A stretch of 60,898 bases of DNA from a bacterium (GCA_030648955.1 JAUSHB010000004.1:1-60898); one strand, 5' to 3'; positions 1,043 through 46,152 are shown, counted from the stretch's first letter. Translations and numbers: made by a program. Notes: a model not told the origin generated them from the sequence alone.

Positions 1043-1101
1043 AAAGGTCCGACCCTGCCTACCGGCAGGCAGGCCTTAAGGCTCCCAAGGTCGGACCCTT
1101 G
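1043..1101. repeat. REP-like palindrome pair with nested CCTGCCTACCGGCAGGCAGG element
   Basis: aaaggtccgac-[cctgcctaccggcaggcagg, 1054-1073]-ccttaag followed by caaggtcggacccttg (1086-1101). Confidence 0.7.
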
Positions 1102-1292
1102 TAAATTACACGTTTTACGACCCTCACTTATCCACACCCGCTATTTCCTTGATTTTTTGATGATATATAATTACTACAGCCTAGAAACAAGCGCTTTCGT
1201 GTTATCTTTTGGTCGAATTTTCCTCTAAGCACGATAAGCGCAATAAGGTTGGTTATATATTATTAAAGTTTATTATTTAGAATAAGAAACAA

Positions 1293-1778
1293 ATGAAAAA
1301 ACGAGGTTTTACATTGATCGAACTTTTGGTCGTTATCGCCATTATTGGTATTCTCGCGTCAGTTGTGTTGGCATCGCTCAACACCGCGCGAACAAAAGGT
1401 TCAGACGCTGCAGGAAAAGCTCAAATGTCCGGGGCTCGTGCTCAAGCGGAACTTTTCTACGACAGTAATGGTAATAGCTATGATGGGGGTACTGCGGCGA
1501 CAAATGTCTGTGATCCTGCTGGTTTAGCTGGCGGTGTAAGTGGAGTCAACGCACTTGTTTTAGCAGCTGCAAAGAACGCGCTTAGCACCGCTGTTGTTGG
1601 TGTTGACGATACTGTTACCACAGTACCTGCGACTGCTTCTTGTAACGCGACTGCTAATGCATATGCCGCCGAAGTTGCCTTAAAGGGCGGCTCTTTCTTT
1701 TGTGTAGATTCTACAGGGAAAGGGCAGGTTAATGCCGCTGCTGGTCTCGACAACACAGCAACCGACGTTAGTTGTTAA
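1293..1778 (+). CDS. Type IV major pilin
   Basis: MKKRG|FTLIELLVVIAIIGILA class III signal peptide; C-terminal FCVDSTG with Cys pairs. Confidence 0.92.
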   Translation: MKKRGFTLIELLVVIAIIGILASVVLASLNTARTKGSDAAGKAQMSGARAQAELFYDSNGNSYDGGTAATNVCDPAGLAGGVSGVNALVLAAAKNALSTAVVGVDDTVTTVPATASCNATANAYAAEVALKGGSFFCVDSTGKGQVNAAAGLDNTATDVSC

Positions 1779-1800
1779 TCTAGTAATTTTCAAATTCCAC

Positions 1801-1828
1801 AAAAAACCACCCGAGCGGGTGGTTTTTT
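1801..1828 (+). terminator. Intrinsic terminator
   Basis: aaaaaaccacccg-ag-cgggtggtttttt after pilin stop. Confidence 0.85.
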
Positions 1829-1830
1829 GA

Positions 1831-1904
1831 TGGGGCACAAAGGACTTTCCTTTGTAAACCCTAATTATGGGGCACAAAGGACTTTCCTTTGTAAACCCTA
1901 ATTA
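1831..1904. repeat. 37-bp perfect tandem duplication containing REP-like hairpin
   Basis: tggggcacaaaggactttcctttgtaaaccctaatta at 1831-1867 and 1868-1904; core acaaaggactttcctttg recurs at 2841-2858. Confidence 0.9.
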
Positions 1905-1954
1905 TTAAAATCGAATTCTGGTTGGATCCAATCTCGCAGGGATAAGGGGGTCAG

Positions 1955-2686
1955 ATAAGGGGGTCAGGTACCCTTTTCTTTTGGTTCTGATATACTAAAT
2001 TCATGCCTCGCATCACTCGTACCGACATTGGCAATCATTGTTATCATGTCATAAATCGTGCCAACGCTCGACTCCCAATTTTCTTTACAGAAAAGGATTA
2101 CATTTTGTTCGAGAATGTTTTAGAAGAAGCTCAAGAAAAGTTTTCTATGAGAATTCTCGCGTATTGCCTTATGCCAAATCATTTTCACCTCGTACTGTAC
2201 CCAAGAAATGATGGTGATATGGGTAAATTCATGCAATGGCTCACACTCACTCATACGCAACGCTGGCATCAAATAAACAATACAAAGGGAACGGGGCACC
2301 TCTATCAAGGAAGGTACAAATCTTTTTTGATACAAGAAGACAACCATCTTCTTTCTGTCATTCGCTATGTGGAGCGAAATGCCCTTCGTGCAAAGCTTGT
2401 TAAAAAAGCAGAGAACTGGGGTTTCTGTAGTTTGGCGCGCAGGCTTTCAAGGGACACAAGAAAAAAGAAGCTTTTGTCAGCGTGGCCGATATCAGAACCC
2501 GAAGATTATCTTTTGTTTGTAAATACTCCGCAACCCAAAGAGGAAGAAGAAAATATTAGAGCATCTGTCGTAAGGGGGAAACCGTTGGGTACAGATACAT
2601 GGACTGTAAAAGTGATAAAAAAATTTAGACTCGAAGCTACCATCCGCTCGCCATGGAGGCCCCAAAAGGGTACCTGACCCCCTTAT
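1955..2686. mobile_element. RAYT-like element bounded by 23-bp perfect inverted repeats
   Basis: ataagggggtcaggtaccctttt (1955-1977) / aaaagggtacctgacccccttat (2664-2686) enclosing the transposase ORF. Confidence 0.8.
2003..2677 (+). CDS. REP-associated tyrosine (Y1/HUH) transposase, IS200-like TnpA/RAYT
   Basis: YHVINR, AYCLMPNHFHL (HUH), HLYQGRYKS, YVERNALRA motifs. Confidence 0.9.
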   Translation: MPRITRTDIGNHCYHVINRANARLPIFFTEKDYILFENVLEEAQEKFSMRILAYCLMPNHFHLVLYPRNDGDMGKFMQWLTLTHTQRWHQINNTKGTGHLYQGRYKSFLIQEDNHLLSVIRYVERNALRAKLVKKAENWGFCSLARRLSRDTRKKKLLSAWPISEPEDYLLFVNTPQPKEEEENIRASVVRGKPLGTDTWTVKVIKKFRLEATIRSPWRPQKGT

Positions 2687-9002: not shown

Positions 9003-10454
9003 ATGAGTATTGATCTCAAAACACTCACCATAAAAAAAGCTCATGAACACCTTGCACAGGGCGATTTTTCTGCCATGGAACTTTCCGAAGCGTATCTTAA
9101 AAATATTGAAGCGCACAACAAAAATATCAATGCATATCTTGAAGTATTTAATGACATAGAAGAACAAGCCAAAGAATCACAAAAAATTATAGAATCAAAG
9201 AAAGGCGGAATATTTACGGGCATTCCCATCGCAGTGAAGGACAACATTTTAATAAAAGGAAAACGAGCAAGTTCCGCGTCAAAAATTCTTGAAGGATATA
9301 CAGCAACTTATGATGCAACGGTAATTAAAAAATTGAAAGCGGATGGCGCGGTGTTTTTAGGAAGAACGAATATGGATGAGTTTGCCATGGGGGGATCGAC
9401 CGAAAATTCTGCCTTTGGGGCAACAAAGAACCCCCTTGATATTTCTAGGGTTCCCGGCGGTTCTTCGGGCGGCTCTGCCGCCGCCGTTGCGATGGATGGC
9501 GCACTTGTAGCACTTGGTTCGGATACAGGGGGATCTATCAGACAACCCGCCTCATTTTGTGGGCTTGTCGGGCTTAAACCAACCTACGGTGCAGTTTCAA
9601 GATATGGCCTTATGGCAATGGCATCGTCGCTCGACCAAATCGGACCATTCGGAAAAACCGTTGAAGACGCGGAAATTTTGTTCAATGTGATCGGGGGGCA
9701 TGATCCGATGGACAGCACTTCTTCGCCTCGCGAGGCACGGAACAACACGGACATAACACAGAATGATCCAGGGAAAAAAATAACGATTGGAATTCCCAAA
9801 GACATTGTCGATTCACCAGGAATAGATTCGGCAGTGCTCAAAAATTTTAATGAAACAATCACAAAACTTAAGAACGTAGGATATTTGATTAAGGAAATTA
9901 CACTGCCACACATGCACTACGCGCTATCGGTGTATTACATCATCATGCCTGCGGAAGCCTCCACCAACCTCGCGCGTTTTGATGGTGTGCGCTATGGTTT
10001 ATCACAAAAAGGAGCAACACCGTTTGAGGATTATGCAAAAACCCGAGGAGAAGGGTTTGGAAGAGAAGTGCGTCGCCGAATACTTTTGGGAACCTATGTT
10101 CTCTCATCAGGATATTACGATGCATATTACAATAAAGCATGGAGTCTTCGTTCTTTAATGGGTAAGGATTTTGAACAGGCCTTTAAAGATGTCGATGTTA
10201 TTGCAACGCCAACAACTCCTACGCCTGCATTTAAGATTGGGGAGAAAAGTAATGACCCACTTGCCATGTATCTCGCGGATGTTTTCACGGTTCCCGCGAA
10301 CCTCATTGGTATTCCAGCACTATCAGTGCCTTCGGGATATGATGATCGCGATGGGAAAAAACTTCCCTTGGGACTGCAGCTCATGGCGCCTCATTTCGAA
10401 GAAGCATTACTATTCAAGATAGGGAAGGATGTTTTTGGATCTTCGGCATCATAA
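9003..10454 (+). CDS. gatA: Asp/Glu-tRNA amidotransferase subunit A
   Basis: Amidase signature GGSSGGSAAAVA, GSDTGGSIRQPA, RRRILLGTYVLSSGYYDAYY. Confidence 0.97.
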   Translation: MSIDLKTLTIKKAHEHLAQGDFSAMELSEAYLKNIEAHNKNINAYLEVFNDIEEQAKESQKIIESKKGGIFTGIPIAVKDNILIKGKRASSASKILEGYTATYDATVIKKLKADGAVFLGRTNMDEFAMGGSTENSAFGATKNPLDISRVPGGSSGGSAAAVAMDGALVALGSDTGGSIRQPASFCGLVGLKPTYGAVSRYGLMAMASSLDQIGPFGKTVEDAEILFNVIGGHDPMDSTSSPREARNNTDITQNDPGKKITIGIPKDIVDSPGIDSAVLKNFNETITKLKNVGYLIKEITLPHMHYALSVYYIIMPAEASTNLARFDGVRYGLSQKGATPFEDYAKTRGEGFGREVRRRILLGTYVLSSGYYDAYYNKAWSLRSLMGKDFEQAFKDVDVIATPTTPTPAFKIGEKSNDPLAMYLADVFTVPANLIGIPALSVPSGYDDRDGKKLPLGLQLMAPHFEEALLFKIGKDVFGSSAS

Positions 10455-10464
10455 AAGGAAATGT

Positions 10465-11136
10465 ATGGCAGAAAAAGGAACAGGAGGGAAAAACAAAGTA
10501 GGATTTGAAAATGACGCAATCGATTATGTGATTTTTTCGTTTGTCATTCTTGCTGTTATAAGTGCCACGTTTGGAATCCATGACATCAATGATGTGCCTC
10601 AGGTTCTTAAGAAAGGTTACGAGACGTATATCAAATTATCCAGTGATATGGTTGTGTCGTGGATTATTTCTTATACTGCACTCTTTAAAACAATTTCTTT
10701 TCTTATTATCATGCTTTCTGTTGCCGGCATCGTTTATATTTTTTTGCGATTACGAAGATTACAGGCGCAAGAACATGAGAAATATAAGGCTGTGGATGTT
10801 GAGGGTGAGGATGCGAAAGCGAGACAAGTTCAATGGGAAATTATTCTCAAGCATATGGCATCAGAAAATAATGCTGAATGGAAGCTGGGAATTCTTGAGG
10901 CCGATAATATCCTCGATGAACTTTTAGAAGAACGTGGATATCGCGGAGAGACTCTTGGTGATCGACTGAAGTTTGCTGAATCAAAGGGACTTAAAACGCT
11001 TAACGACGCGTGGGAGGCACACAAGGCGCGTAATAAGATTGTACACGAAGAAGCAACGTCGCCACTTAATAAACGCGATGCGCGGAAAATCATTGACCTG
11101 TATGAAAAAGTGTTTAAAGAACTAGGATATCTTTAG
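10465..11136 (+). CDS. Conserved hypothetical membrane protein
   Basis: Two TM segments, then WKLGILEADNILDELL...GETLGDRLK...AWEAHKARNKIVH. Confidence 0.75.
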   Translation: MAEKGTGGKNKVGFENDAIDYVIFSFVILAVISATFGIHDINDVPQVLKKGYETYIKLSSDMVVSWIISYTALFKTISFLIIMLSVAGIVYIFLRLRRLQAQEHEKYKAVDVEGEDAKARQVQWEIILKHMASENNAEWKLGILEADNILDELLEERGYRGETLGDRLKFAESKGLKTLNDAWEAHKARNKIVHEEATSPLNKRDARKIIDLYEKVFKELGYL

Positions 11137-11224
11137 CCTGTCTGTCGGCAGGTTGCATTACGTGTCGTGGTTGGTATATAATCTCACTATCTTAAAAACG
11201 CCTAAAAAGCGTTTTTGACATTAT

Positions 11225-22651: not shown

Positions 22652-23565
22652 TGCGGTCTCTTTCTTCGAAGCAGGTCATCACGGCCATTCTCATTGTTGT
22701 TTTGATTGGTGGCTTGCTCGCGTTTGCTGTTTTGCGTTATAACAAAGTGCCAGCGTCGCCGGTAGCACAGCCGGTAGAGAAAGTTTCTGGTCCGATACAC
22801 AAGGTGATAGGCACGTCCGTGCAAGGGCGCGCGATCGATTCGTACACATATCTACCTGCCGGAAACTCGGCGCAGACAAGTGGAACAGGCGATATACATC
22901 TCGCGTTTGTCGGTGGCATACATGGCGGCTATGAGTGGAACAGCGTCTCTCTGGCGTATAAATTTATGGATTATCTCAAGGCAAACCAAGAGGTCATTCC
23001 CAAAAACATAACCGTTTCGGTGATTCCGTCCGCTAATCCTGACGGCGTGTATAAAGTGATAGGCAAAGAGGGTCGTTTCGCTTTTGCGGATGTGTCCAAA
23101 GAAGCGGCTACTGTTCCAGGGCGATTCAATGCCCATGATGTTGACCTCAACCGTAACTTTGACTGTAGGTGGAAATCGGAGAGTATGTGGAAAGGAAATA
23201 AAGTAAGCGCCGGAACAGAACCGTTCTCGGAGCCGGAAGCCAGGGCTGTTCGGGATTTTGTTTTAGAAAATAAGCCAGATGCTGTTATCTTCTGGCATAG
23301 TCAGGCCAATGCTGTGTACGCATCCGAGTGCAAGGACGGCATTCTTCCCAAGACACTCGACATCATGAATGCATATGCGCGCGCGGCCGGATATCCGGCA
23401 GTCAAATCATTTGACGCATACGCGATCACCGGCGATGCCGAAGGGTGGCTTGCATCCATAAACATTCCAGCAATTACTGTTGAACTTAAAACTCACGAGA
23501 CCATTGAGTGGGATAAAAACTTAGCCGGTATCAACGCGCTTTTTAAGTACTATGGACATATATGA
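22651..23565 (+). CDS. M14 zinc carboxypeptidase (MpaA-like)
   Basis: GGIHGGYEW, NPDG, DLNRNF, FWHS, ITVEL; N-terminal TM anchor. Confidence 0.85.
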   Translation: MRSLSSKQVITAILIVVLIGGLLAFAVLRYNKVPASPVAQPVEKVSGPIHKVIGTSVQGRAIDSYTYLPAGNSAQTSGTGDIHLAFVGGIHGGYEWNSVSLAYKFMDYLKANQEVIPKNITVSVIPSANPDGVYKVIGKEGRFAFADVSKEAATVPGRFNAHDVDLNRNFDCRWKSESMWKGNKVSAGTEPFSEPEARAVRDFVLENKPDAVIFWHSQANAVYASECKDGILPKTLDIMNAYARAAGYPAVKSFDAYAITGDAEGWLASINIPAITVELKTHETIEWDKNLAGINALFKYYGHI

Positions 23566-28034: not shown

Positions 28035-29384
28035 CTACACACTATCCCCTGCGACAAATCCTGTGGTCCAGCAGAGCTGAAGGGAATAGCCGCCTGATGG
28101 GCGGTTGATATTGAGTATGTCGCCTGCGAAATAAAGGTTTGGGTAGAGGCGCGAGCGCATGGTTTTGGTATCCACTTCGTCAAGCGAAACCCCACCGTCC
28201 GATACCACAGCGCGGTCATATCCCATAAGTCCTTTGATGGCGAGCGGCGCACCTTTCAAGATATGGACGAGGCGCTTACGGTCTTCTTTGGTGATGCTGT
28301 GCGCTTTAATATTTACGTCGGGAAGCCCCCAGAGCATTAAGATGGCAGGGTCGGTGCCGTGAGGGACAAGCGCGTCAAGGAAATTTTTGAGATTTTTGTT
28401 TTTATTGGCATCAATGGTTTTAAGAATACTTCGCTCAAGATCCGCAAAATCAGTATCGGGATACATATCAATTTCTGCGGTCACCTCGCCCCCCTCGAGC
28501 AATTCGCTTACCTGTTTTGCGGAGTTGAGAATAAGTGGACCGGAAAGTCCGAAGTGAGTGAAGAGAAGTTTTCCTTTTTTTGAAAATGCCTTTTTTCTTT
28601 TACCCTGAGCGTCGTCGAACGGGTTGCCGTTTTGAAAAAAAGTTATTTTCATAAATGAAAGTGATATGCCGGAAAGTTTTTTGACCCACGCGTCTTTGAC
28701 CGCAAGAGGTACAATATTTGGGCTTCCAGGGGCGACAGTATGGCCGAGTTCTTTGAGCCATTTAAACCCATCGCCCGTCGAGCCTGTTTCGGGACGGGAA
28801 TATCCGCCCGTTGTGATAATAAAATTATCTGCGGTGTAGCGGGTGGCCTGACTGCGAGCGCCGTGCCTGCGCCGTAGCGCGGCAGGCAGGTTCTCGCTCA
28901 GGCAGGCACCGCAAGAAACAGAAACAATCTTGCCGCCGAGAGCGGTGACTCGTCCGACGGCGGCACCCATCTTTACTGTCACGTGATTATCGGCGATATA
29001 TTGTTTCATAACACGCGACACGTCTGTCGCTTTTTGCGTGTTGGGAAAAGCGCGTTTACGAGCTTCAACCACGAGTGGTAATTCGTGTGATTCAAAAAAT
29101 TCAAATGTATTTTTTACACCGAAGCGTGAAAAAGGGGAGTAGAGATAGTTTTTTGCCGTAGAGTAGTGTTTTAAAAATTCATGGACGTCGTATTCGGCGT
29201 TGGTGATATTGCACCTGCCACCGCCCGTCATATCGAGTTTTTTCCCAAGCGTTTTATTTTTTTCAAGAAGAAGAACGGACTTGCCGTGCTCTCCTGCATG
29301 CCCCGCCGCCATCATACCCGCCGGACCTCCGCCGATGACAATAACATCAAAATGAGTTTTTTCCACCTTTTTCATACTGGGCAT
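28035..29384 (-). CDS. HI0933/YhiN-family NAD(P)/FAD-dependent flavoprotein
   Basis: GGGPAG, GGGRCNITN, TGSTGDG, LFTHFGLSGP, GGYSLQ; two palindromic inserts. Confidence 0.92.
   Translation of the reverse strand: MPSMKKVEKTHFDVIVIGGGPAGMMAAGHAGEHGKSVLLLEKNKTLGKKLDMTGGGRCNITNAEYDVHEFLKHYSTAKNYLYSPFSRFGVKNTFEFFESHELPLVVEARKRAFPNTQKATDVSRVMKQYIADNHVTVKMGAAVGRVTALGGKIVSVSCGACLSENLPAALRRRHGARSQATRYTADNFIITTGGYSRPETGSTGDGFKWLKELGHTVAPGSPNIVPLAVKDAWVKKLSGISLSFMKITFFQNGNPFDDAQGKRKKAFSKKGKLLFTHFGLSGPLILNSAKQVSELLEGGEVTAEIDMYPDTDFADLERSILKTIDANKNKNLKNFLDALVPHGTDPAILMLWGLPDVNIKAHSITKEDRKRLVHILKGAPLAIKGLMGYDRAVVSDGGVSLDEVDTKTMRSRLYPNLYFAGDILNINRPSGGYSLQLCWTTGFVAGDSV
28601..28624. repeat. In-frame cccNttcgacNNgctcaggg-type palindromic insert
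   Basis: Coding strand cccgttcgacgacgctcagggta, encodes PFDDAQG. Confidence 0.6.
28847..28906. repeat. Nested 30+30 bp in-frame palindromic insert
   Basis: cctgactgcgagcg-[ccgtgcctgcgccgtagcgcggcaggcagg]-ttctcgctcaggcagg. Confidence 0.85.
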
Positions 29385-29861: not shown

Positions 29862-29963
29862 TGGTTCTATCCTCCGTGTATTCTTTATTTATATTGCTCG
29901 CAGGACTTCAAAAAGTCAATCCCACATATCATATTAATTTTTTTATATGTTAAAATATCTCTT

Positions 29964-30431
29964 ATGCAGATTAAAGAGCTTGGGCATGTTGTACTCTACG
30001 TAACCAACCTTGAAACGGTCACAAATTTTTATCGTGACGTGCTCGGATTCCGTGAAGTTGATCGCAATGATGGTTTTGCCGTTTTTTCCTCGGGACGTAC
30101 ACATCACGAGCTTCTTTTAATTCAAGTCGGCGGCACTCCGCGCCCGCCTGAGCGAGTTCGCTCGCAGTCAGGGAAAAAGGGAGTAGAGCCGGGGTTGTAT
30201 CATATCGGTTTTAAAGTTGCAGACACCGACCAAGAATTAAAAGAAATTTACCGGCATCTAAAAAAACACCACGTAACGATCATTGGCACGGGAGATCATA
30301 CCGTGACACACAGTATTTATATTCTTGATCCCGATGGGAATGAACTTGAGTTATATGCCGACGTTTCCGATGTCTGGAAAAAAGATCCGAAATCAATCAT
30401 GTCGCTTACCAAACCACTTAACCTTGATTAA
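29964..30431 (+). CDS. VOC/glyoxalase family protein
   Basis: LGHVVLYV, FYRDVLGF, LYHIGF, SIYILDPDGNELEL; start moved to ATG 29964 behind TGtTAAAAT. Confidence 0.9.
   Translation: MQIKELGHVVLYVTNLETVTNFYRDVLGFREVDRNDGFAVFSSGRTHHELLLIQVGGTPRPPERVRSQSGKKGVEPGLYHIGFKVADTDQELKEIYRHLKKHHVTIIGTGDHTVTHSIYILDPDGNELELYADVSDVWKKDPKSIMSLTKPLNLD
30143..30172. repeat. In-frame 30-bp palindromic insert
   Basis: cccgcctgagcgagttcgctcgcagtcagg; reverse complement matches the outer element at 28847-28906. Confidence 0.85.
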
Positions 30432-31152: not shown

Positions 31153-31210
31153 GTCAGTAAAATTACCGATCAAGTTGTCAAGGAGGTATCCCGCACATAT
31201 ACATTTATTA

Positions 31211-31996: not shown

Positions 31997-32078
31997 ATAG
32001 CGTAAGTCTCCAAACGTTCAATGTGAGAAAAATAGATTTATACTCGCCAGTACTTAGTGTTTACGGTACACTGGATGT

Positions 32079-32846: not shown

Positions 32847-32982
32847 GCGTTGATGTGTTCTCTTAAAAAATATCCTAAATTGCCTTCTTGTCTCCCAGTT
32901 GTTTTTTTAAAAGCGCTGTATGTTTCTCGCGCTGTTTTCTGATACAATATAATCACTCATTGTAACTAGACACTCATACATC

Positions 32983-35448
32983 ATGCCCACAGACAATAAT
33001 CGCTCGGTCATCAATCTTCCCAAAGGAGTCTCGGGACTTTCCCGTCGCGAGGCGAAAGAGCGCCTAGCAACATACGGTCCAAATGAGATTATTCAAGGTG
33101 TCAAGCTCTCTCTTGTTGCAAATTTCTTTTTGAAATTTAAAAATCCTCTCATCATCATCCTCATTATTGCCGCGCTCATCTCCGGCTTTTTGGGTAATCG
33201 TATCGACCCGTTCATTATTATTGCGATGGTGATATTAAGTGTCACGATCGATTTTTTTAATACTTATAAATCGCAAAAAGCAGCAGAAGCTCTTCGAGAT
33301 CGTGTAAAAATTACGGGAACGGTGGTTCGCGAGGGAACCATCGAGGAAATTCCACTCTCGCTTATTGTTCCCGGTGATGTGGTCATACTTTCGCCCGGCG
33401 ATGTTATTCCCGCCGATGGCGTCGTGTTGCAGTCAAAGGACTTTTTCTTGAATGAATCGTCACTTACAGGTGAGTCATTTCCCGCCGAAAAAGATATTCA
33501 TTCTCCCATTTTTATGGGGAGCAGTGTTGTGACGGGGTCCGGACTCATGACGGTCCTTACAACAGGGAAAAAAACAAAATTCGGATCTATCGCCGAAACG
33601 CTTATGCGCAAAGAAGAACCGACTGAATTCGACCGAGGAATCAAGGATTTCAGCGTGCTCATTATGAAGATGATTTTTATTCTGGTTATCTTTGTGTTTT
33701 TCGTCAATGCGTTTACCAAGAATCAATTACTTGATTCATTTCTTTTTGCTATTGCTCTTGCAGTAGGCCTTACTCCAGAGCTTTTACCGATGATTATTGC
33801 GCTCAATCTTTCTCGCGGATCACTTGTCATGTCAAAACGGGGCGTCATCGTGAAAAAGCTTAGTGCGATACAAAGTTTCGGAAGTATGGATATTTTGTGC
33901 ACCGATAAAACGGGGACACTTACCGAAGATCGCATCGTGTTGATTAAGTGTGTAGATGGTTTTGGGGTAGAATCTGAAAAAGTGTTTCTTTATTCATATG
34001 TGAATAGTTTTTATCAGAGCGGGTTTTTAAATCCGCTCGATTCGGCAGTTGTTGAATTCAGAAAGCTTCATACGAAAGAGTACAAAAAAGTTGATGAAAC
34101 ACCTTTTGATTATATTCGAAAACGTAACACCGTGGTTGTGGATGGTCCAGAGGGGAGACTTCTCATTACTAAGGGAGCTCCAGAAGAACTTTTACGAGAA
34201 TGTAGTTTTTATGCCGATGATAGCACACCATTTTCGGATGACATATCAAAACGCGTTTATGGTCAATATCAAGACTTAAGTAAGGAGGGGTTTCGTGTTC
34301 TCGCGGTCGGTATCAAGAAAATTCATGAGAAAAGAGAGGTGTATGGAAAGAATGAAGAGCACAACATGGTGTTTGCGGGCTTCATTGCTTTTCTTGATCC
34401 CGCAAAAAAGACTGTTGCAGAAACACTCAAAAAATTAGAAGAGTATGGGATTGAAATTAAGATTATCACAGGTGATAACGACCTAGTGAGTCAAAAAATT
34501 GCCCGTGATATTAATTTGCTCGTCAAAGGGGTTCTTACGGGAAACGAAATTGAAATTTTAACTGATGATGCATTAAGAATTCGAGCCGAAGAAACAACGA
34601 TTTTTGCACGCGTGTCACCGGACCAGAAAACAAGGATTATCAGGCTTCTTCAGAAAAATAAACACGTGGTTGGATATATGGGTGATGGAATTAATGATGC
34701 GCCGGCTCTTAAGGCGGCAGATGTCGGCATCTCGGTCAACAATGCTGTTGACGTTGCAAAAGAATCAGCAGATATTATTTTGATTCACAAAAGCCTTAAC
34801 GATCTTGTTGAGGGTGTGATAGAAGGGAGAAAAACTTTTTCTAATACTATGAAATATCTTATGATGACGCTATCGTCCAATTTCGGCAATATGTTTTCAA
34901 TGGCAGGTGCGTCGCTTTTTATTCCATTTCTACCAATGCTCCCGACACAAATCTTACTCAACAATTTTATTTACGACAGCTCTCAACTTGCTCTTTCTGT
35001 CGATAACGTTGACCACGCTGAAATAAAAAAACCCCACAAACTTGATATCGGGTTCATTAAGAAGTTCATGATGGTCTTCGGCCCATTAAGTTCTGTCTTC
35101 GATGTTGTAACATTTCTGGTACTATTGCTTGTGTTTAACTTTGTTGAAAGTGATTTTCAAACGGGGTGGTTTATTGAATCTCTTGCTACACAAACACTGG
35201 TAATCTATATGATTCGTTCGCGATTCTCGTTCTTCAAAAGCAAGCCGAGTATCGCATTAGTGATAAGCACTATCGTAGCCGTCGGTGTTGGGTGGGGGAT
35301 CGCGCAGAGTTCGCTCGGAACAATATTCAATTTTAAACCACTCGCACTTCTTCCGCTCATCGCGATTGGCGCCATTGTCACCGCATATCTTGCGGCAGTG
35401 TATTTTGCAAAGAAGTGGTTTTACAACAAGCTTTTGAAAGATTACTAA
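32983..35448 (+). CDS. mgtA: Mg2+-translocating P-type ATPase
   Basis: TGES, PELLP, DKTGTLT, TGDN, GDGINDAPAL; LPTQILLNN. Confidence 0.88.
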   Translation: MPTDNNRSVINLPKGVSGLSRREAKERLATYGPNEIIQGVKLSLVANFFLKFKNPLIIILIIAALISGFLGNRIDPFIIIAMVILSVTIDFFNTYKSQKAAEALRDRVKITGTVVREGTIEEIPLSLIVPGDVVILSPGDVIPADGVVLQSKDFFLNESSLTGESFPAEKDIHSPIFMGSSVVTGSGLMTVLTTGKKTKFGSIAETLMRKEEPTEFDRGIKDFSVLIMKMIFILVIFVFFVNAFTKNQLLDSFLFAIALAVGLTPELLPMIIALNLSRGSLVMSKRGVIVKKLSAIQSFGSMDILCTDKTGTLTEDRIVLIKCVDGFGVESEKVFLYSYVNSFYQSGFLNPLDSAVVEFRKLHTKEYKKVDETPFDYIRKRNTVVVDGPEGRLLITKGAPEELLRECSFYADDSTPFSDDISKRVYGQYQDLSKEGFRVLAVGIKKIHEKREVYGKNEEHNMVFAGFIAFLDPAKKTVAETLKKLEEYGIEIKIITGDNDLVSQKIARDINLLVKGVLTGNEIEILTDDALRIRAEETTIFARVSPDQKTRIIRLLQKNKHVVGYMGDGINDAPALKAADVGISVNNAVDVAKESADIILIHKSLNDLVEGVIEGRKTFSNTMKYLMMTLSSNFGNMFSMAGASLFIPFLPMLPTQILLNNFIYDSSQLALSVDNVDHAEIKKPHKLDIGFIKKFMMVFGPLSSVFDVVTFLVLLLVFNFVESDFQTGWFIESLATQTLVIYMIRSRFSFFKSKPSIALVISTIVAVGVGWGIAQSSLGTIFNFKPLALLPLIAIGAIVTAYLAAVYFAKKWFYNKLLKDY

Positions 35449-35559
35449 TCCAATGTACTCTGTTTTGATGATTTAAATTTTCACCTGCCCGCGCGTTACT
35501 TACTTGAGTGAATCTTCGGTCATCCCGAAGTGCGTGTGAAATACATCACCAAACACATT

Positions 35560-36537
35560 TCAACGCAGGCGGGGAATTTTACTTGTAACTGCCCTAACGA
35601 CATTTACCGGGATTGCAAAGCTGATGTTGCTTGAACCCATGACCGTGGCGACATTGATACCCACCACTTTGCCGTCTATGTCGATGAGCGGACCGCCTGA
35701 ATTGCCTGGATTGATTGCGGCATCAGTTTGAATAATACCAGTAAGTTTTTGCACTTTTCCATTGCTGTCAGTCGCTTCTATTTCACGATTAAGTCCTGAA
35801 ATGATGCCGACGGAAATTGAATTATTGTATTCACCAAGCGCATTTCCAATCGCCACAACCGTTTGGCCCAATTTAAGCGTGGAAGAATCACCAAGTGTTA
35901 CGGTTGAGTAGTTATTTCCTTCTATTTTGAGAATCGCGATGTCACTCACGGGGTCTCGATACGAAATCATCGCTTTTTTTTGTGTTCCTGTTGAAAGGAG
36001 TACAGTATAGTCTGCAACAGTATCTGCGACGACATGTTTATTGGTAATAATGTATCCATCCTTAGTTACAATAAATCCTGTTCCTGCACCAACTTTTTTA
36101 TGCTCAACCCCCTTCTGTTGATACACGGGAATTTGGAATTTGAAATTACCGAAAAATGGATCGTCGCCGAAAGGATTTTGATAGGTCACTTCAAGTTTGG
36201 GAACATCTTTTGAAATTACGATTGAAACCACGGAGGGTGATATTTGGGAAACCGCGCCAGTAAGGAGCTCGTCTTGAGATTTTTCACGGACTTGTTGTCG
36301 ATTTTCTATTTCACTGAGTGATAGTGCAACGCGTGAATTTTCCCCGGTTATTTTGGTGATCTCGTTTTGAAGCGAAGAAATCTGTTTTTGCAACGCGGTG
36401 ATTTTTGTGTTGAATAATTTATCACGCTCAGCGGATGATTCTTTCACACTTAAATACGTTTGGTAGGAAAGCGCGATTCCCGCGATTACCAACAACATTA
36501 CAACGGTGCGTATTGATGATGGGTTAAAATTTTTCAT
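35560..36537 (-). CDS. Trypsin-like (HtrA/DegP-type) serine protease without PDZ
   Basis: TNKHVV, SDIA, QTDAAINPGNSGGPL; N-terminal TM and coiled coil. Confidence 0.9.
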   Translation of the reverse strand: MKNFNPSSIRTVVMLLVIAGIALSYQTYLSVKESSAERDKLFNTKITALQKQISSLQNEITKITGENSRVALSLSEIENRQQVREKSQDELLTGAVSQISPSVVSIVISKDVPKLEVTYQNPFGDDPFFGNFKFQIPVYQQKGVEHKKVGAGTGFIVTKDGYIITNKHVVADTVADYTVLLSTGTQKKAMISYRDPVSDIAILKIEGNNYSTVTLGDSSTLKLGQTVVAIGNALGEYNNSISVGIISGLNREIEATDSNGKVQKLTGIIQTDAAINPGNSGGPLIDIDGKVVGINVATVMGSSNISFAIPVNVVRAVTSKIPRLR

Positions 36538-36780
36538 GATTTGCTGTTTTATTTAAGACTCTTATTTTATATAATTTAGTTTCAGTGTGTCAACACACCC
36601 GTTATTTCTATCTTCTCTATTTCCTCATATACAATTAATTTCTGCGATAGCATGAATTAATTGTATCTATAGTAACTATGTGCATGCATTGTTCATTCAT
36701 TTGACAACCGGTGTCACATTGCTAGACTGTTCCCAGTGTTCTTTGCTATGCCGCCACAACTCTAAACGAGGAGTAAATTC

Positions 36781-37155
36781 ATGGATAAAGAAATCATACT
36801 TTCCGCAGTTCAAGATGCATGTAGCGTTAGCACCTCCCTTATTACTTGTGAATCCTGTGGTCGCGTGCATTTCAACGATGAAGAACCAGAAAAACTTGAG
36901 GAGCTTACTAAGAAAGCTCAAGTGAAACCCGATCGTTATATTGATCATGGAGATGTGAGCATCGCGTGGTTTACATTTAATGGTAAACAAGTAGTGGTTG
37001 ATTGTCAGTGTGACAAAGCCGCGGCGATCGGGAAATTTTTATGGCAGCACCGCTTTTTTATTAGAGATGTCCTTGTTGGGGTCGCGGAAAAGAATGCAGA
37101 AATTGCGAGGGGCGACCAGAAGTCGATGGGTAAGCTACAGGCAACACCTTTATAA
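36781..37155 (+). CDS. Hypothetical protein with CxxC/CxC motifs
   Basis: 124-aa ORF, CESCGRVH and DCQC; followed by a terminator. Confidence 0.6.
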   Translation: MDKEIILSAVQDACSVSTSLITCESCGRVHFNDEEPEKLEELTKKAQVKPDRYIDHGDVSIAWFTFNGKQVVVDCQCDKAAAIGKFLWQHRFFIRDVLVGVAEKNAEIARGDQKSMGKLQATPL

Positions 37156-37177
37156 TTTTCCTACACGTTCTTTTTTT

Positions 37178-37210
37178 AAAGTCCCGTTAGTTGTACTGGC
37201 GGGACTTTTT
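37178..37210 (+). terminator. Intrinsic terminator
   Basis: aaagtcccg...cgggactttt. Confidence 0.7.
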
Positions 37211-37316
37211 GTAAAAGATAATCGCCATAATCAGCAGGATAAAAACTAGTTTTTTGACTTTTTTACTTTCTTGATGTAGTATATGGTATTAATCCCATCA
37301 GGGGGATTTTTTCATT

Positions 37317-39104
37317 ATGGAGATTAGGAATATAGCTATTATTGCTCACGTTGACCACGGGAAGACCACGCTCACAGACGCTATCATGCGGCAGACGGGA
37401 ATGTTTACCGAAGGGATGAGTATGGATGTAAACGCGCTTGAACAAGAGCGCGGCATTACGATATACGCTAAAAATACCGCAACATTTTATAAGGGCACAA
37501 AAATCAATATTGTGGACACTCCCGGCCACGCCGATTTCGGTTCTGAAGTGGAGCGCGTGCTCCGTTCGATCGATTCCGTACTTCTTGTTGTTGACGCGCA
37601 GGAAGGGCCAATGCCCCAGACACGCTTTGTGCTTAAAAAATCCCTTGAATTGGGGCTCAAGCCGATTGTGGTGATAAATAAGATTGATAAACCTGCGGCT
37701 GATGTAGGGCGCACACATGACCAAGTACTTGAGCTATTCATCGATCTTGGCGCAAACCATGACCAGCTTGATTTTCCTGTTATATACGCGATTGGCCGCT
37801 CGGGGATTGCAAAGAAAAATCTCGCTGATGAATCAAAAGACCTCACCCCGCTTCTCGACATGATCCTTGAAAAAGTTCCCGCCGCGCCTTCGCAAACAGA
37901 TCTCCCTTTGCGAGCACAGCCGTTTAATCTTGCATACGACAATTTTCTCGGACGTCTTGCTATTGTCCGCATGTATGAAGGGGTGATTCGTGCTGGAGAT
38001 ACAGTGTATGTGAAAAATTTTAATAATCCCAACGAAACACCCAAGAGTGGAAAAATTACAAAACTCTTTACGTTCCGTGGTGTTGCAAGGGAAGAGGCGA
38101 CAGAAGCATGCGCTGGAGACATTGCGATGATTGCGGGTATCCCCGGTATTTTTATTGGTGATACTATTTGTGCGAACGGCGATCAAGAAGCGCTTCCCGC
38201 AATCAAAATCGACGAGCCGACCATCGCGCTTAATTTTTTTGTGAATAGCTCTCCGTTTGCGGGACGCGAAGGAAAATTTGTGACGTCTCGACAAATCCGT
38301 GAACGTCTCGAGAAGGAGCTTGAGGTAAACGTCGGACTTCATGTAGACTTTGGTGCAAACGACACATTCAAGGTATACGGACGAGGAGAGCTTCATATTG
38401 CTATCTTACTTGAAAACATGCGTCGCGAAGGACATGAACTTCAAGTATCACAACCGCAAGTAATTATTAAGGAGGAAAACGGAAAGAAGCTCGAACCTTT
38501 CGAGGAAATTACTATTGATATTCCTGCAGAATTTCAGGGTACGGTAATTGAAAAAATGGGAAAGCGCGCTGCGCAACTTCAAGACATGAAACACCATGGC
38601 AACACCGCGCGTCTTATTTTCGAAGGTCCTACGAGAGGACTCTTGGGATATCGCGGGCAATTCGTGATCGATACAAAGGGCGAGGGCATTATGGCAAGCC
38701 GTGTCATTGGATTTAAGCCGCACGTGGGAGAGATCGAGAAACGTGCGGTGGGGTCAATGATGTCTATGGCAACAGGGAAGGCGACCGGTTACTCGCTATG
38801 GAACCTTCAGGATCGTGGTACGCTGTATATTGACCCCAACACGGAAGTATATGAAGGGATGGTTATCGGCAATACCTCAAAGGGCGAGGAAATGGTAGTA
38901 AATCCAATTAAGGGAAAACAGCTTTCCAATGTTCGCTCATCGGGGACTGATGATGCAATCGAGCTCGTACCCCCATACATCCTATCTCTTGAACGTGGAC
39001 TTGAAACGATGTCGGAAGATGAATACCTTGAAATTACTCCAAAAAACGTTCGTCTTCGCAAACAATATCTTACCGAGACAGAACGTTCACGGGCTCGTAG
39101 GTAA
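37317..39104 (+). CDS. typA: Translational GTPase TypA/BipA
   Basis: AHVDHGKTT, DTPGHADF, NKID, GRGELH, EITPKNVRLRK. Confidence 0.96.
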   Translation: MEIRNIAIIAHVDHGKTTLTDAIMRQTGMFTEGMSMDVNALEQERGITIYAKNTATFYKGTKINIVDTPGHADFGSEVERVLRSIDSVLLVVDAQEGPMPQTRFVLKKSLELGLKPIVVINKIDKPAADVGRTHDQVLELFIDLGANHDQLDFPVIYAIGRSGIAKKNLADESKDLTPLLDMILEKVPAAPSQTDLPLRAQPFNLAYDNFLGRLAIVRMYEGVIRAGDTVYVKNFNNPNETPKSGKITKLFTFRGVAREEATEACAGDIAMIAGIPGIFIGDTICANGDQEALPAIKIDEPTIALNFFVNSSPFAGREGKFVTSRQIRERLEKELEVNVGLHVDFGANDTFKVYGRGELHIAILLENMRREGHELQVSQPQVIIKEENGKKLEPFEEITIDIPAEFQGTVIEKMGKRAAQLQDMKHHGNTARLIFEGPTRGLLGYRGQFVIDTKGEGIMASRVIGFKPHVGEIEKRAVGSMMSMATGKATGYSLWNLQDRGTLYIDPNTEVYEGMVIGNTSKGEEMVVNPIKGKQLSNVRSSGTDDAIELVPPYILSLERGLETMSEDEYLEITPKNVRLRKQYLTETERSRARR

Positions 39105-39170
39105 AATATCATTAGTCCACTATCATACGATATGTCGTATGATAGTGGACACAAAAACTAAACACTATAT

Positions 39171-40451
39171 ATGTATAAAAAATCATTTGGATCAAGTGGT
39201 CCTAAAAAATCATACGGAGGAGGAAAAAGCGGAGGAGGAAATTTCAAAAGAGGTTCTTCTTTTGGGCGTAGTAACGTGGGTGGGTCCCGTGGTGGACGAG
39301 GGTTCTCTCGCGGCAGTGGCAGCGGCGGAGGCAGAAGATTCACGGGACAAAGGATTGATGTGTCGCGCTTCATCAGCAAGGCGACCGTGACAGAAGAAGT
39401 GAAAGATTATAGTCCAGAGCATTCGTTTGCAACGTTTAAAATTCACGAAAAACTTAAAGCAAATATCCTCAATAAGGGATATGTTTTGCCGACACCGATT
39501 CAAGACAAAGCTATCCCGCACATTCTTGAGGGGAAAGATATCGTTGGCGTTGCAAACACGGGCACAGGAAAAACTGCGGCGTTCCTCATTCCCTTCATCA
39601 ACAAGATTCTCCATAGCACCAACGAGCAGATTTTGATCGTCGCTCCCACGCGAGAACTTGCAACGCAGATCAACGATGAATTTATCGGATTCGCACGGGG
39701 GCTTGGTTTGTTTTCTGTGGTGTGTATTGGCGGAGCCAATATCCACCAACAAATGAGCAATTTGCGCCGCAAGTATAGTATTGTTATCGGAACACCGGGA
39801 CGGCTTAAGGATTTGATAGAACGAAGAGCACTGACGTTAAATAAGGTTTCAAATGTTGTTTTAGATGAAGCCGATCGCATGCTTGATATGGGTTTTATCA
39901 ACGACATGAAGTATCTTCTTTCAAAAGTTGCCCCGGAACGACAAACACTTCTTTTCTCCGCAACGATTTCACATGAGATCGAAGGGATCATCAGAACTTT
40001 TCTCCGTAATCCGATCAAAATATCAGTGAAGACCGGAGACACGGCTTCAAACGTGGAACAAGATATTATTCGCGTGAAGCAAGGGGAGAAGAAGAATGAT
40101 ATTCTTCGCAACTTGCTTACTCAAAAAGATTTCAGCAAAGTGCTTATTTTTGGCAGAACGAAACATGGGGTTGAAAAACTTTCCCGCACTCTTGCCGAAC
40201 TAGGGTTTAAAGCAGTTTCAATTCATGGCGATAAAACACACGGGAATCGCGCACGCGCACTCAAGCAATTTAAGGACAATCAAGTGCAGATTTTGGTTGC
40301 AACCGATGTTGCCGCACGCGGACTTGATATTCCTGATGTGACCCATGTCATAAACTACGATATTCCCGGAACCTATGAAGACTATGTTCACCGCATCGGC
40401 CGCACCGGCAGAGCAAACAAAAAAGGCTTTGCGCTGACGTTCGTTGAGTAA
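39171..40451 (+). CDS. DEAD-box RNA helicase
   Basis: PTPIQ, TGTGKT, PTRELA, DEAD, SAT, HRIGRTGR; G/R-rich N-terminus. Confidence 0.95.
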   Translation: MYKKSFGSSGPKKSYGGGKSGGGNFKRGSSFGRSNVGGSRGGRGFSRGSGSGGGRRFTGQRIDVSRFISKATVTEEVKDYSPEHSFATFKIHEKLKANILNKGYVLPTPIQDKAIPHILEGKDIVGVANTGTGKTAAFLIPFINKILHSTNEQILIVAPTRELATQINDEFIGFARGLGLFSVVCIGGANIHQQMSNLRRKYSIVIGTPGRLKDLIERRALTLNKVSNVVLDEADRMLDMGFINDMKYLLSKVAPERQTLLFSATISHEIEGIIRTFLRNPIKISVKTGDTASNVEQDIIRVKQGEKKNDILRNLLTQKDFSKVLIFGRTKHGVEKLSRTLAELGFKAVSIHGDKTHGNRARALKQFKDNQVQILVATDVAARGLDIPDVTHVINYDIPGTYEDYVHRIGRTGRANKKGFALTFVE

Positions 40452-43833: not shown

Positions 43834-45108
43834 ATGAAAATAGCAATACGTTTTTCGGCACTCATACTCGGTTTTTCAATGCTTTTGCCCGCATTAAGTT
43901 ATGCAGAAACTGCGACTTCTGTAGATGCGATTACCCAGCTTAAACAAAAAATTCTTGAGCTTCAAGCGCAGATCCTTGAGCTTCAAAAACAGCAACAACA
44001 AGTTACTCTTGAATTGCTTAAAAATCTTGGACAGGGGGCAAGTGGTGATGATGTGAAAACACTCCAGGCGCTCCTTGCGGGAGACTCGGAAATATATCCC
44101 GAAGGTAAAATCACGGGGTTTTTTGGTCCACTGACAGTCAAAGCACTCAAAAAGTTCCAAGCAAAACACGGGATTGAACAGGTTGGTTTTGCCGGACCGA
44201 AGACTCTTAAAAAACTCAATGAATTACTCAAGGGAAGCACCGTTGTTGTAGTGGGTGATTCGCAAAATCTCACTGCGTCCACAACGTGCACCGTTCTTCC
44301 TCCCGGGCACTACATTGCTCCGGGATGGAATAAAAAAATGAGCGATGACCATGAAGACGATGATGACGGCGATAACGATAATGATAAGAAGAAGAATAAA
44401 GAAAATAAGGGAAAAGAACAAAAATTTGGTTCAATTCCATTTAGTATACCGTGCAACCAGCTTCCCCCGGGAATTGCCAAGAAAATTGGTCAGGGAACAA
44501 CAACTCCTCCACTTCCAGATACGATTGTCCCTACCATATCGAATGTAGTCGTCGGAACAATTATCCAAACAGGAGCATCAATCACGTGGACAACTAGTGA
44601 GCCGACTCGATCAAAAATTTCCTATGGTACAAGCACGGCGTACACCGTTGAGACAGGATTTAGCTCAACACTATCTTCCGCATTTACCCAAGTAATATCA
44701 GGTCTTACGTCTTCTACTGTGTATCACTTCAAAATTGCTGCCAAGGATGCGGCAGGGAATACAACCTCTACGGGAGATATGACATTTACCACAGCAAGTG
44801 TTCCACCCCCAACTGACACCACTGCGCCGGCGATTTCATCGATTTCTGTTGGAAGTATTGCGTCAACAACTGCGAGTGTGACATGGACGACCAATGAACT
44901 TGCACGAAGCAAGGTCTACTATAGTACTACCACCCCGCTTAGTCTTTCAAGCGCTTCATTTATAGCAGATTCTTCTTTGGTAACAAGCCACACGAAGACA
45001 CTTTCGAGCCTTACAGCAAGTACAACTCACTACTATGTGATCGAATCCCAAGACGGAGCAGGCAATATCGCGACTTCAACTGAAAATTCTTTCACAACGC
45101 TACCCTAA
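43834..45108 (+). CDS. Secreted peptidoglycan-binding + two fibronectin type III domains
   Basis: Signal peptide, GDDVKTLQALL...TGFFGPLT...FQ, LPPG motifs, two ITW/VTWTT-E FN3 repeats. Confidence 0.85.
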   Translation: MKIAIRFSALILGFSMLLPALSYAETATSVDAITQLKQKILELQAQILELQKQQQQVTLELLKNLGQGASGDDVKTLQALLAGDSEIYPEGKITGFFGPLTVKALKKFQAKHGIEQVGFAGPKTLKKLNELLKGSTVVVVGDSQNLTASTTCTVLPPGHYIAPGWNKKMSDDHEDDDDGDNDNDKKKNKENKGKEQKFGSIPFSIPCNQLPPGIAKKIGQGTTTPPLPDTIVPTISNVVVGTIIQTGASITWTTSEPTRSKISYGTSTAYTVETGFSSTLSSAFTQVISGLTSSTVYHFKIAAKDAAGNTTSTGDMTFTTASVPPPTDTTAPAISSISVGSIASTTASVTWTTNELARSKVYYSTTTPLSLSSASFIADSSLVTSHTKTLSSLTASTTHYYVIESQDGAGNIATSTENSFTTLP

Positions 45109-45290
45109 GAGCCTATTCATTATCTAACCGCAAAATGTGTTACAAAACATTGCTTGCCTGCCAAAATTCTCAAATTTCGGCTACAAATCACTCATTCCTC
45201 CTCAACGTATCTCGATATGCTTCGTCGGACTTCGTGATTTTCGCTCGAAATTTGAGAATTTTAACTAGGCATTAGATAATGAACAGGCTC
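45109..45290. mobile_element. 182-bp MITE, 19-bp TIRs, TAA target duplication
   Basis: TAA|gagcctattcattatctaa...ttagataatgaacaggctc|TAA; internal IR aaaattctcaaatttcg/cgaaatttgagaatttt. Confidence 0.88.
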
Positions 45291-45330
45291 TAAGCTAAAA
45301 AACTAAAAAAGCTTGTAAAATATAGCTTTT

Positions 45331-45363
45331 ATACCCCCGCCTTCTCAAGGAAGGCGGGGGTAT
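45331..45363 (+). terminator. Terminator-like hairpin
   Basis: atacccccgccttc...gaaggcgggggtat. Confidence 0.7.
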
Positions 45364-45634
45364 TTTGCACCAAAAACGACAAAATATCCTTAATTTTCAA
45401 TGGTTTTTTCAAGATTTAGCTATTTTATCTATATTTGACAATATAAAATAGGTGTTGTATAACCATTGACTTTTGATACCAAACACGCTAGACTTCTTGC
45501 ATCTCAGGGTAACACCTGGGAATTTTATTTTCCCCCTTATTTTATAAGGTTAAAACCTCGGATAAGGGTTAAGGGATTTATCATTAACTTACAACATTAT
45601 TTTTACAACTATTACTACTTTTACAACCCTATCC

Positions 45635-46087
45635 ATGGCCTTTTCGGCATTCATAGGGGGAGGGTTTGCGCAGCAGTCAGTATCTCAAACAACACCTTCT
45701 GCAACTTCTTCTCAAACAGGAGAACGTATCGAGGTTCCTTTGAAGCAAAAAATTGCAACGAGCACCCAAGATATTTCGGTAAAATGGGTGGTGAGTGAAT
45801 ATTTTGCTGATATTCCAGAACTTGTAGGTGTTGCTCAATGCGAGTCACACTTTCGCCATTTCGACAAGAATGGGCGCGTGCTTCGTGGATATGTTAACAA
45901 AAGCGATATTGGTGTAATGCAAATCAACGAGTATTATCATGGCAAGAAGGCAGAAGAGCTTGGGTACGATCTCTACTCTATAGAGGGGAATATGTTGTAT
46001 GCTCGTTATTTATATAACCGCGAAGGTCTTACTCCATGGTTGTCGTCCTCAAAATGCTGGAAGATGAATGAGCTTGCGCTTCGTTAA
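45635..46087 (+). CDS. Lysozyme-like/transglycosylase domain protein
   Basis: VAQCESHF, DIGVMQIN, GNMLYARYLY...PW; start uncertain. Confidence 0.75.
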   Translation: MAFSAFIGGGFAQQSVSQTTPSATSSQTGERIEVPLKQKIATSTQDISVKWVVSEYFADIPELVGVAQCESHFRHFDKNGRVLRGYVNKSDIGVMQINEYYHGKKAEELGYDLYSIEGNMLYARYLYNREGLTPWLSSSKCWKMNELALR

Positions 46088-46122
46088 TTCAAAACGTGAA
46101 ACTTGGAGCGTAGGGCGTGAAG

Positions 46123-46152
46123 CCTGCCTACCGCCCCAACAGGGCAGGCAGG
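46123..46152. repeat. Intergenic 30-bp CCTGCC...GGCAGG palindrome
   Basis: cctgcctaccgccccaacagggcaggcagg. Confidence 0.78.

Follow-up and report, generated by a model that had tools for sequence, protein, structure and literature searches.

The 60,898-nucleotide stretch GCA_030648955.1 JAUSHB010000004.1:1-60898, which we call the window, carries six to seven copies of a family of GC-rich palindromic mini-elements, and four of the seven lie inside protein-coding genes, where alignment with homologs identifies each of them as a clean in-frame insertion. Each new site receives an exact unit, with no consistent duplication of the target. Insertions are seen within genes, between genes and in the loops of other copies, and two sites are filled in one strain and empty in another at 98-99% identity. 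The copies belong to a cosmopolitan superfamily of GC-rich mini-hairpin insertion elements, relatives of repetitive extragenic palindromic (REP) sequences, Rickettsia palindromic elements (RPEs) and GC clusters. We consider it probable that they are non-autonomous hairpin elements whose insertion into loop or single-stranded DNA is carried out in trans, and that they are filtered by selection for compatibility with coding and lost by precise excision or slippage.

The labels of the best named relatives of its proteins place the host among the ultra-small Patescibacteria (candidate phyla radiation), of the Minisyncoccota/Paceibacteria kind and near Yonathbacteria-like lineages. The GC content of the window is ∼42%, and the complete 61-kb stretch is present in one run only, a groundwater metagenome. 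Copy counts for the host cover the 61-kb window; outside it, our results come from scans of public collections with exact arm patterns and from contigs of relatives.

Two subtypes of mini-hairpin

The original prediction described a single palindrome family, CCTGCC...GGCAGG, that is dispersed and inserts in frame into proteins. The dispersal and the in-frame placement stand, but reading and alignment of the sites resolve two subtypes with related ends instead of one. Type B has the form 5'-CCTGCCTGCC-loop-CGG(CGC or T)AGGCAGG, with a short form CCTGCCTGCC..loop..CGGCGCAGGCAGG, and type A has the form 5'-CCTGCCTGAGCGAG-NN-CGCTCGCAGTCAGG. The ends shared by the family are 5'-CCTGNCTG ... CAGNCAGG-3'. 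Units are 27-33 nt in length, extending to 39 nt at the widest count, and composites 57-60 nt. The pattern CCTGYC-N(5-25)-GRCAGG occurs three times in the window against 0.09 expected, a count that 0 of 100 shuffles reach; GCAGGCAGG occurs four times, and the 8-mer CAGGCAGG five times against 0.6 expected.

To score the type B copies we used a covariance model, R1, made from 72 copies: 70 from other genomes, the window copy at 12335 and the counterpart of that copy in a relative's contig (L004). An unfiltered R1 search of the window, with E allowed up to 10, gave ten matches, some of them on both strands and all of them on the six type B loci of the original prediction. Every hairpin site that had been predicted is present, with coordinates exact or within 1 nt (Table 1). 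For the degenerate copy proposed at 11136, immediately 3' of the stop codon of the open reading frame (ORF) 10429-11136, the hairpin itself exists, but the model scores it only weakly. The coding copies were also said to be multiples of three that leave their ORFs open, and this is so for all four genic copies and every host ORF.

Table 1. Family copies in the window, with the Y1 transposase gene (not a family member) in the last row. Bits and E values marked R1 are from the type B covariance model.
Positions	Strand	Feature	Score and context
1054..1073		Type B mini-hairpin, intergenic	CCTGCC-TACC-GGCAGG plus CAGG; R1 23.2 bits, E 0.017
11137..11152		Possible degenerate mini-hairpin, CCTGTC-TGTC-GGCAGG	R1 10.5 bits, E 4.5; weak
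12335..12367	-	Type B, 33 nt, in frame, LPATTGTAQAG	R1 48.2 bits; sense orientation in ORF 12196-12942
22852..22881	+	Decayed type B, 30 nt, in frame, LPAGNSAQTS	R1 match 22856-22875, 16.9 bits, E 0.28
28847..28906	-	Composite 60-nt insert, ACLSENLPAALRRRHGARSQ	HI0933/BaiN-type flavoprotein gene 28035-29384
28861..28890	-	Type B, 30 nt, nested in type A loop	Between GAGAA and CGCTC; R1 28862-28890, 30.7 bits, E 7e-4
30143..30172	+	Type A, 30 nt, in frame, PPERVRSQSG	VOC/glyoxalase gene; one mismatch to consensus
46123..46152		Type B variant, 30 nt, intergenic	R1 22.8 bits, E 0.021
2003..2677	+	Y1 (HUH) tyrosine transposase gene	PF01797 at 2.8e-16

The two type A copies, at 30143-30172 and in the outer shell of 28847-28906, have 12 + 13 identical bases. 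This shell consists of 28847-28860 (14 nt) and 28891-28906 (16 nt), with arms identical to those of the 30143 copy, and the type B unit sits between its two parts. A single orientation suffices for all four clear type B copies of the window. For the intergenic pair at 1054 and 46123 the orientation is ambiguous, as R1 scores these copies better in the other one. These two copies have CCTGCCTACCG in common. The first lies between a gene resembling the F component of the type II secretion system (T2SS-F-like; end 982) and a prepilin gene (start 1293), within a larger imperfect hairpin, and the second lies between the convergent gene ends 46087 and 46217. We also considered the GC-rich segment 9444-9507 as an insert and rejected it, as it is the conserved amidase signature GGSSGGSAAAVA.

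Filled and empty sites

Alignment with orthologs, proposed in the original prediction as a check for clean indels, showed a clean insertion at each of the four genic sites. Distant orthologs do not share the inserted peptides, so this refuting condition of the original prediction did not come true; IIGLPATTGTAQAGDETH is an example of a peptide that spans an insert. The ancestral state is the empty site in all outgroups. Across the contigs fetched from relatives, including a 13-kb contig (L001) that is syntenic with window positions 24752-40406, the sole family copy is that of L004, at the shared 12335 site.

The 12335 copy lies in a conserved Patescibacteria protein (ORF 12196-12942) that matches no Pfam family above threshold. 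An ortholog with 98% identity (L003) lacks exactly the 33 nt, its empty site joining ATTATC directly to GGGGAC, and eleven more distant orthologs also lack the insert. The 88%-identical ortholog in L004 carries a copy at the same site with identical arms and six of ten loop bases different, and on a maximum-likelihood tree the site requires at least two gains or losses. Near-identical copies of this unit occur at many other loci in four metagenomes, all from groundwater or freshwater, where the depth over the 33-nt unit is several-fold higher and its flanks are many and different.

None of the 15 homologs aligned with the flavoprotein gene has the 60-nt insert, not even the one at 92% identity (L001). 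A 241-nt contig from another study is ∼99% identical on both sides and skips exactly the 60 nt, with a 3-nt boundary ambiguity. The original prediction held the family to be active or recently active, and recent activity is borne out by this strain from the other study's metagenome, together with the 98% ortholog that lacks exactly the 33 nt at 12335.

The type A insert in the VOC/glyoxalase gene (real start ∼29967, end 30431) is missing in homologs at 90% identity or below, and the DNA gap relative to one of them (L005) is exactly 30 nt. It is present at the same site in the contig of a 93%-identical relative (run X3). Two M14 peptidase genes stand in tandem, and the second (22651-23565) holds the 22852 copy, whose ten residues are missing in the adjacent paralog and in 10 of 11 other homologs; in relatives' contigs YTY and GNG are directly joined at this site. 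In a hand alignment the insert DNA matches CTGCCTGCCGAAGCCTCGGCGCAGGCAGG, the commonest type B 30-mer, at ∼23 of 29 positions. This copy is decayed and is therefore the oldest of the four genic copies.

Other, unrelated inserts of 5, 11 and 18 residues occupy the same loops in two VOC homologs (P0286 and P0292) and one M14 homolog (P0368), and the loops that hold the VOC and M14 inserts appear to be generally permissive. The flavoprotein gene carries a second clean in-frame 30-nt insert, NPFDDAQGKR (28596-28625, minus strand), which has 93% nucleotide identity between the window and an 82%-identical ortholog (L002) and is missing from the closer L001 (92%) and from all others. It forms only a weak hairpin and has just CCTGAGCG in common with type A; its patchiness suggests recombination or repeated gain. 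Mapping on predicted structures, another of the proposed checks, placed the HI0933 inserts at turns between paired strands, but the AlphaFold model (16 sequences) is weak, with a mean predicted local distance difference test score (pLDDT) of 53.6. We used it for strand order only, and the placement of both flavoprotein inserts at such turns is thus tentative.

Two further genes have insert-like segments of other kinds. The ABC-F type ATPase gene 24982-26466 contains, relative to L001, a 24-nt in-frame insert (PSSSLGTS, 25915-25938) with a small hairpin, CCCTCGAG-TAGC-CTCGGG, and no family ends; it may represent another mini-hairpin type. The RNase J gene 49123-51204 (minus strand) encodes a GC-rich N-terminal extension of ∼135 residues (50800-51204) in which Arg, Gly and Pro are abundant. 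It includes a very stable hairpin, CCCGCGCCC...GGGCGCGGG, of -49 kcal/mol in one folding and -38 in another, and the extension may have arisen by accretion of hairpin DNA of high GC content.

Spread, mechanism and alternatives

The family is cosmopolitan and not specific to the host genome, which the original prediction did not foresee. The scans found at least 120 type A loci in metagenomes and at least 120 type B loci in species-representative genomes, at least ∼240 public loci for the two types together. Because the scans used exact arm patterns, the conservation of the arms in these public copies is partly by construction. More than 15 phyla are represented among the matches listed, often by letter-for-letter identical units, and one 30-mer, CCTGCCTGCCGAAGCCTCGGCGCAGGCAGG, is identical in 16 loci. 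The type B hosts listed are Latescibacterota (many copies, complete chromosomes), Omnitrophota, Verrucomicrobiota, Kiritimatiellota, Lentisphaerota, Planctomycetota, Bacteroidota, Patescibacteria, Methylomirabilota, Desulfobacterota, Acidobacteriota, WOR-3, Fibrobacterota, Calditrichota, Gallionella and the isolate Thiorhodospira sibirica. The titles of metagenome-assembled genomes (MAGs) may be wrong for single contigs; complete chromosomes are nevertheless among the matches. Logan contigs are evidence of presence, not of frequency. The GC content of the flanks of public copies ranges from 0.42 to 0.68.

Contigs classed as viral also carry the family, 31 of them with type B and one with type A (32 in total), and ORF calls on these contigs are unreliable at 55-72% GC. 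Sequenced plasmids (7.3 Gb) gave only chance-level partial matches to the 30-mer and no match to the 57-mer composite, and Rfam holds no matching family at the gathering threshold or at E up to 1. In the chromosomes of Latescibacterota the type B unit travels as the core of a longer element, a larger conserved repeat of the form AAAAGAA..GCG-[unit]-GCC(G/C)CTC... (loci L131, L135, L156, L176, L178, L180-L182, L214, L222, L240 and L245).

Lengths are strongly biased toward multiples of three, which account for 97 of 110 distinct type B sequences (p 8e-33; 27, 30, 33, 36, 39, 48 and 51 nt). Type B sequences are open in all six frames in 78 of 94 cases, compared with 49.7 for whole-sequence shuffles and 69.3 for loop-only shuffles, and the inner stem has compensatory changes (CG/AU/UA). 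Type A has one closed frame per strand, and both of its open sense frames are used in the window. Genic copies occur in both orientations and in different reading frames, and they encode unrelated peptides.

Nesting recurs outside the window. A 27-nt member occupies the same type A loop position in a metagenome (L085) as the type B unit does in the window, and type A within a CCTGTCTGCGTG...CGCACAGGCAGG shell forms a 57-nt composite at dozens of metagenome loci, which in AT-rich hosts are mostly intergenic. Genic and intergenic copies both exist among the public loci, in both orientations. At flank GC below 0.45, 17 of 27 type A loci lie outside any ORF of at least 240 nt and 7 of 17 type B loci lie in ORFs of at least 600 nt; in GC-rich hosts ORF context is unreliable. 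When the unit is removed, the joined flanks fold more stably than control junctions, both for type B (-8.4 vs -7.0 kcal/mol, p 0.004) and for type A (-12.1 vs -5.4 kcal/mol, p 1e-23). The three verified empty sites resemble small hairpin loops, as judged by eye only.

The best reading of these results, and a probable one, is the non-autonomous hairpin element described above. Insertion would take place where DNA is for a time single-stranded or forms an extruded hairpin, and catalysis would be provided in trans by an enzyme encoded outside the window, for which the obvious candidates are a HUH transposase resembling the REP-associated tyrosine transposases (RAYTs) and a structure-specific nuclease. 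Loss would occur via precise excision, or via slippage across the palindrome between microhomologies of 2-3 nt. Genic copies would persist only if they are multiples of three, stop-free and located in tolerant surface turns, where they would simply be translated. Such a coding-survival filter would account for the lengths quantised in threes and for the six-frame openness throughout the family. Transfer from phylum to phylum would be horizontal and possibly phage-borne.

Several observations weigh against this mechanism. The polymorphisms at 98-99% identity could reflect loss or recombination between strains, not new insertion. We identified no mobilising enzyme, neither Y1 nor any other family being enriched within ∼4 kb of the copies. 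Orientation relative to GC skew is unbiased at 167 public loci, and neither strand folds better for types A and B in a G-U wobble test, with a hint only in six composites; neither result thus points positively to a replication-coupled mechanism that acts on single strands. The insert sites have no target word or target duplication in common, and the boundaries are ambiguous by 0-3 nt, so a target duplication of 2-3 bp would still fit. Part of the signal for flank structure comes from copies that themselves lie inside other copies, the flavoprotein structure model is of low confidence (mean pLDDT 53.6), and translation of the inserts is assumed.

A bolder possibility, which we hold only tentatively and think unlikely, is that the units are cosmopolitan, codon-compatible nano-transposons of 9-11 codons, open in six frames and mainly genic, that target hairpin loops, their own among them, and pass between phyla, perhaps carried by phages, by means of a widespread enzyme not yet linked to transposons. 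If so, they would be a general and so far unrecognised source of protein loop insertions in uncultured bacteria.

We regard it as improbable that new insertions are very rare and that the patchiness arises mainly from homologous recombination between strains together with precise deletion through palindrome-stimulated slippage. The 2-3-nt microhomologies beside two of the inserts fit this account, as does the NPFDDAQGKR insert, which is 93% identical between the window and L002 within flanks of ∼80% and is missing in the closer L001. In the case of GC clusters, homologous recombination brings about exchange from one species to another (Wu and Hao 2015, PMC4478555). However, recombination and deletion leave unexplained the identical units in unrelated genes of one genome (flavoprotein and VOC), the mutual nesting, and the same units in different phyla and genes, and all outgroup sites are empty.

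The original prediction named the Y1 transposase at 2003 as a candidate mobiliser, and a related account, in our judgment also improbable, is that the elements are strict REPs moved in trans by this RAYT-like protein (2003-2677). In its favour, the best model for the Y1 protein is the REP-associated tyrosine transposase NF047646, a type B hairpin precedes the gene by ∼930 nt, and the elements have the size and hairpin shape of REPs and, at 46123, a location between convergent genes; intragenic REPs are also documented (PMC3733652). However, the score of 70.7 bits is below the curated cut-off of 80, and the gene is bracketed by a different repeat, its own inverted repeats (20-23 bp, GGGGTCAG) at 1941-1975 and 2669-2690. 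It is followed on its 3' side by an array of ∼140 nt of CTGACCCCC(TTT) units, the whole unit spanning 1941-2830. A TIRYT arrangement with a GGGGWSAS motif has been described by Di Nocera et al. 2013 (PMC3733652), and by its layout the Y1 gene with its repeats and array is a TIRYT-type unit as defined there. No CCTGCC hairpin flanks the Y1 gene, the closest being the one upstream. The elements also do not have the terminal GTAG/CGTC tags that define the REP superfamilies, a Y1-like ORF, truncated, lies near only 1 of ∼240 public loci, and the same 30-mers occur in more than 15 phyla among the matches listed, whereas RAYT-REP pairs are usually lineage-specific. The proposal that this gene mobilises the family is thus unsupported.

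All-against-all clustering of 3,336 ORFs from the ∼240 loci yielded nothing beyond families that are common anyway, such as sensor kinases and ABC ATPases, and a few genes for restriction or defence. Restriction-modification or defence-type genes (type I R subunit, DUF1156 methylase-like, helicases) occur at L028, L147, L198, L236 and other loci, and their proximity to the elements may merely reflect residence in variable genome islands. As to the surroundings of the Y1 gene, the TIRYT-type unit sits within a pilus gene cluster, and a separate hairpin repeat, CACAAAGGACTTTCCTTTGT, is found at ∼1837, 1873 and 2843.

It is very unlikely that the copies are functional host sequences under selection, whether at the RNA level (mRNA structure, terminators or protein-binding sites) or as useful peptide loops. 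The perfectly conserved arms, variable loops and compensatory inner-stem changes would be expected of such sequences, and the intergenic copies lie after genes, where terminator-like hairpins are common. However, the genic copies lie in both orientations and different frames with unrelated peptides, they are missing from near-identical strains with no other sign of a gene difference, the M14 copy is decaying toward the low GC of the genome, and no Rfam family matches. De Bruijn assemblers can be confused by palindromes and MAG bins can be contaminated, but an origin in misassembly or in base composition by chance is scarcely credible when the motif count far exceeds that of shuffles, the inserts recur across separate studies whose assemblies were made independently (the Logan contig of X1, the X3 contig, and L004, which comes from a different groundwater project), copies are present in complete long-read chromosomes, frames are kept, and flanks are colinear with orthologs.

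On the hairpin-element reading, uncultured bacteria acquire units of only 9-11 codons time and again in their housekeeping and enzyme genes, and these units are then kept, decay or are precisely lost. This would be a mechanism of loop-length evolution that annotation pipelines and alignment-based phylogenies ignore. The letter-for-letter identity across many phyla sharpens an old question, that of how REP-, SDR- (small dispersed repeat) and GC-cluster-like elements without a transposase move. As a substrate the family is tractable, since an oligonucleotide of 30 nt suffices, its ends are defined, and nature provides many pairs of filled and empty sites. Its units are useful as strain markers in groundwater Patescibacteria. 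Because the units create short cross-phylum identities, caution is needed in MAG curation.

Comparison with known systems

Elements of this kind are already in print as intragenic REPs, RPEs, cyanobacterial SDRs and yeast mitochondrial GC clusters. In the literature, the sequence strings matched only unrelated primers, and we found no paper that combines palindromic, in-frame and Patescibacteria, nor any published description of the family, of its spread with identical units over more than 15 phyla, or of the combination of lengths in multiples of three with six-frame openness.

Palindrome-associated transposable elements (PATEs), which derive from IS200/IS605, have subterminal left-end and right-end hairpins with a conserved cleavage tetranucleotide, whereas the present units have one hairpin each. 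Unlike PATEs, they have no fixed target tetranucleotide, the bases 5' of the verified inserts being TTGG, GGTG, GCGC and GAGAA, and they lack a replication-strand orientation bias (167 loci).

RPEs were reportedly introduced by Ogata et al. in 2000. RPE-1 is ∼100-150 bp in length and restricted to Rickettsia, and RPE-1 to RPE-8 are mostly ∼100-150 bp. Like RPEs, the present elements are palindromic repeats that lie in frame in protein-coding genes and are missing from orthologs. Length and host set them apart, as they are GC-rich units of 27-33 nt in a genome of 42% GC, cosmopolitan, and here in a patescibacterial host. The byp elements of Magnusiomyces, attributed to Lang et al. 2014, are said to be skipped by the ribosome, so that their length is not tied to three; the present units, unlike byps, are multiples of three and stop-free, which points to plain translation.

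The SDRs, SDR1-8 of Nostoc and its relatives, are reported by Elhai et al. 2008 (Genome Res 18:1484) to be 21-27 nt in length and to have a hairpin fold in common, and are said to insert precisely without duplication, to nest in themselves and to have been proposed as the smallest mobile elements. Like SDRs, the present elements leave exact gaps relative to orthologs and nest at a fixed loop position, although the units are slightly longer. SDRs are reportedly confined to one cyanobacterial subgroup and tied to HIP1/heptamer contexts, whereas the present distribution is clearly not cyanobacterial, and coding compatibility is no hallmark of SDRs. The two were compared by description; PMC3116915 and PMC4390886 cite the cyanobacterial SDRs of Elhai et al. 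2008.

REPs provide another parallel. They are imperfect palindromes in the 20-40 bp range with many dispersed copies, as are the present elements, and REPs of 20-40 bp have been found wholly inside ORFs in several phyla, adding 10-30 residues to unrelated proteins (PMC3733652). The two kinds also have in common the location between convergent genes as well as wholly within ORFs, G-T pairs in stems, and a transposase link that is often missing; RPE-4 and RPE-6 have been equated with CGTC REPs, and the CGTC families have no transposase (PMC3733652). In contrast to REPs, the present elements have no unpaired terminal GTAG/CGTC tag, GTAG occurring only internally in the 1054 and 46123 variants; their consensus ends are CCTGCCTG... 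and ...GCAGGCAGG or GCAGTCAGG. The window copies are mostly genic, with lengths in multiples of three and six open frames, identical units span more than 15 phyla among the matches listed, and copies nest in loops where REPs form head-to-head dimers. Unlike in a REPtron, the sole Y1 gene of the window is flanked by GGGGTCAG repeats and not by family hairpins.

The GC clusters of yeast mitochondria turn over, merge and are transferred from species to species, as Wu and Hao 2015 showed (PMC4478555). They are organellar, whereas the present family is bacterial, but both are GC-rich palindromes in a lower-GC genome that have no known transposase, are rapidly gained and lost in populations, pass from one species to another, and merge or nest with one another.

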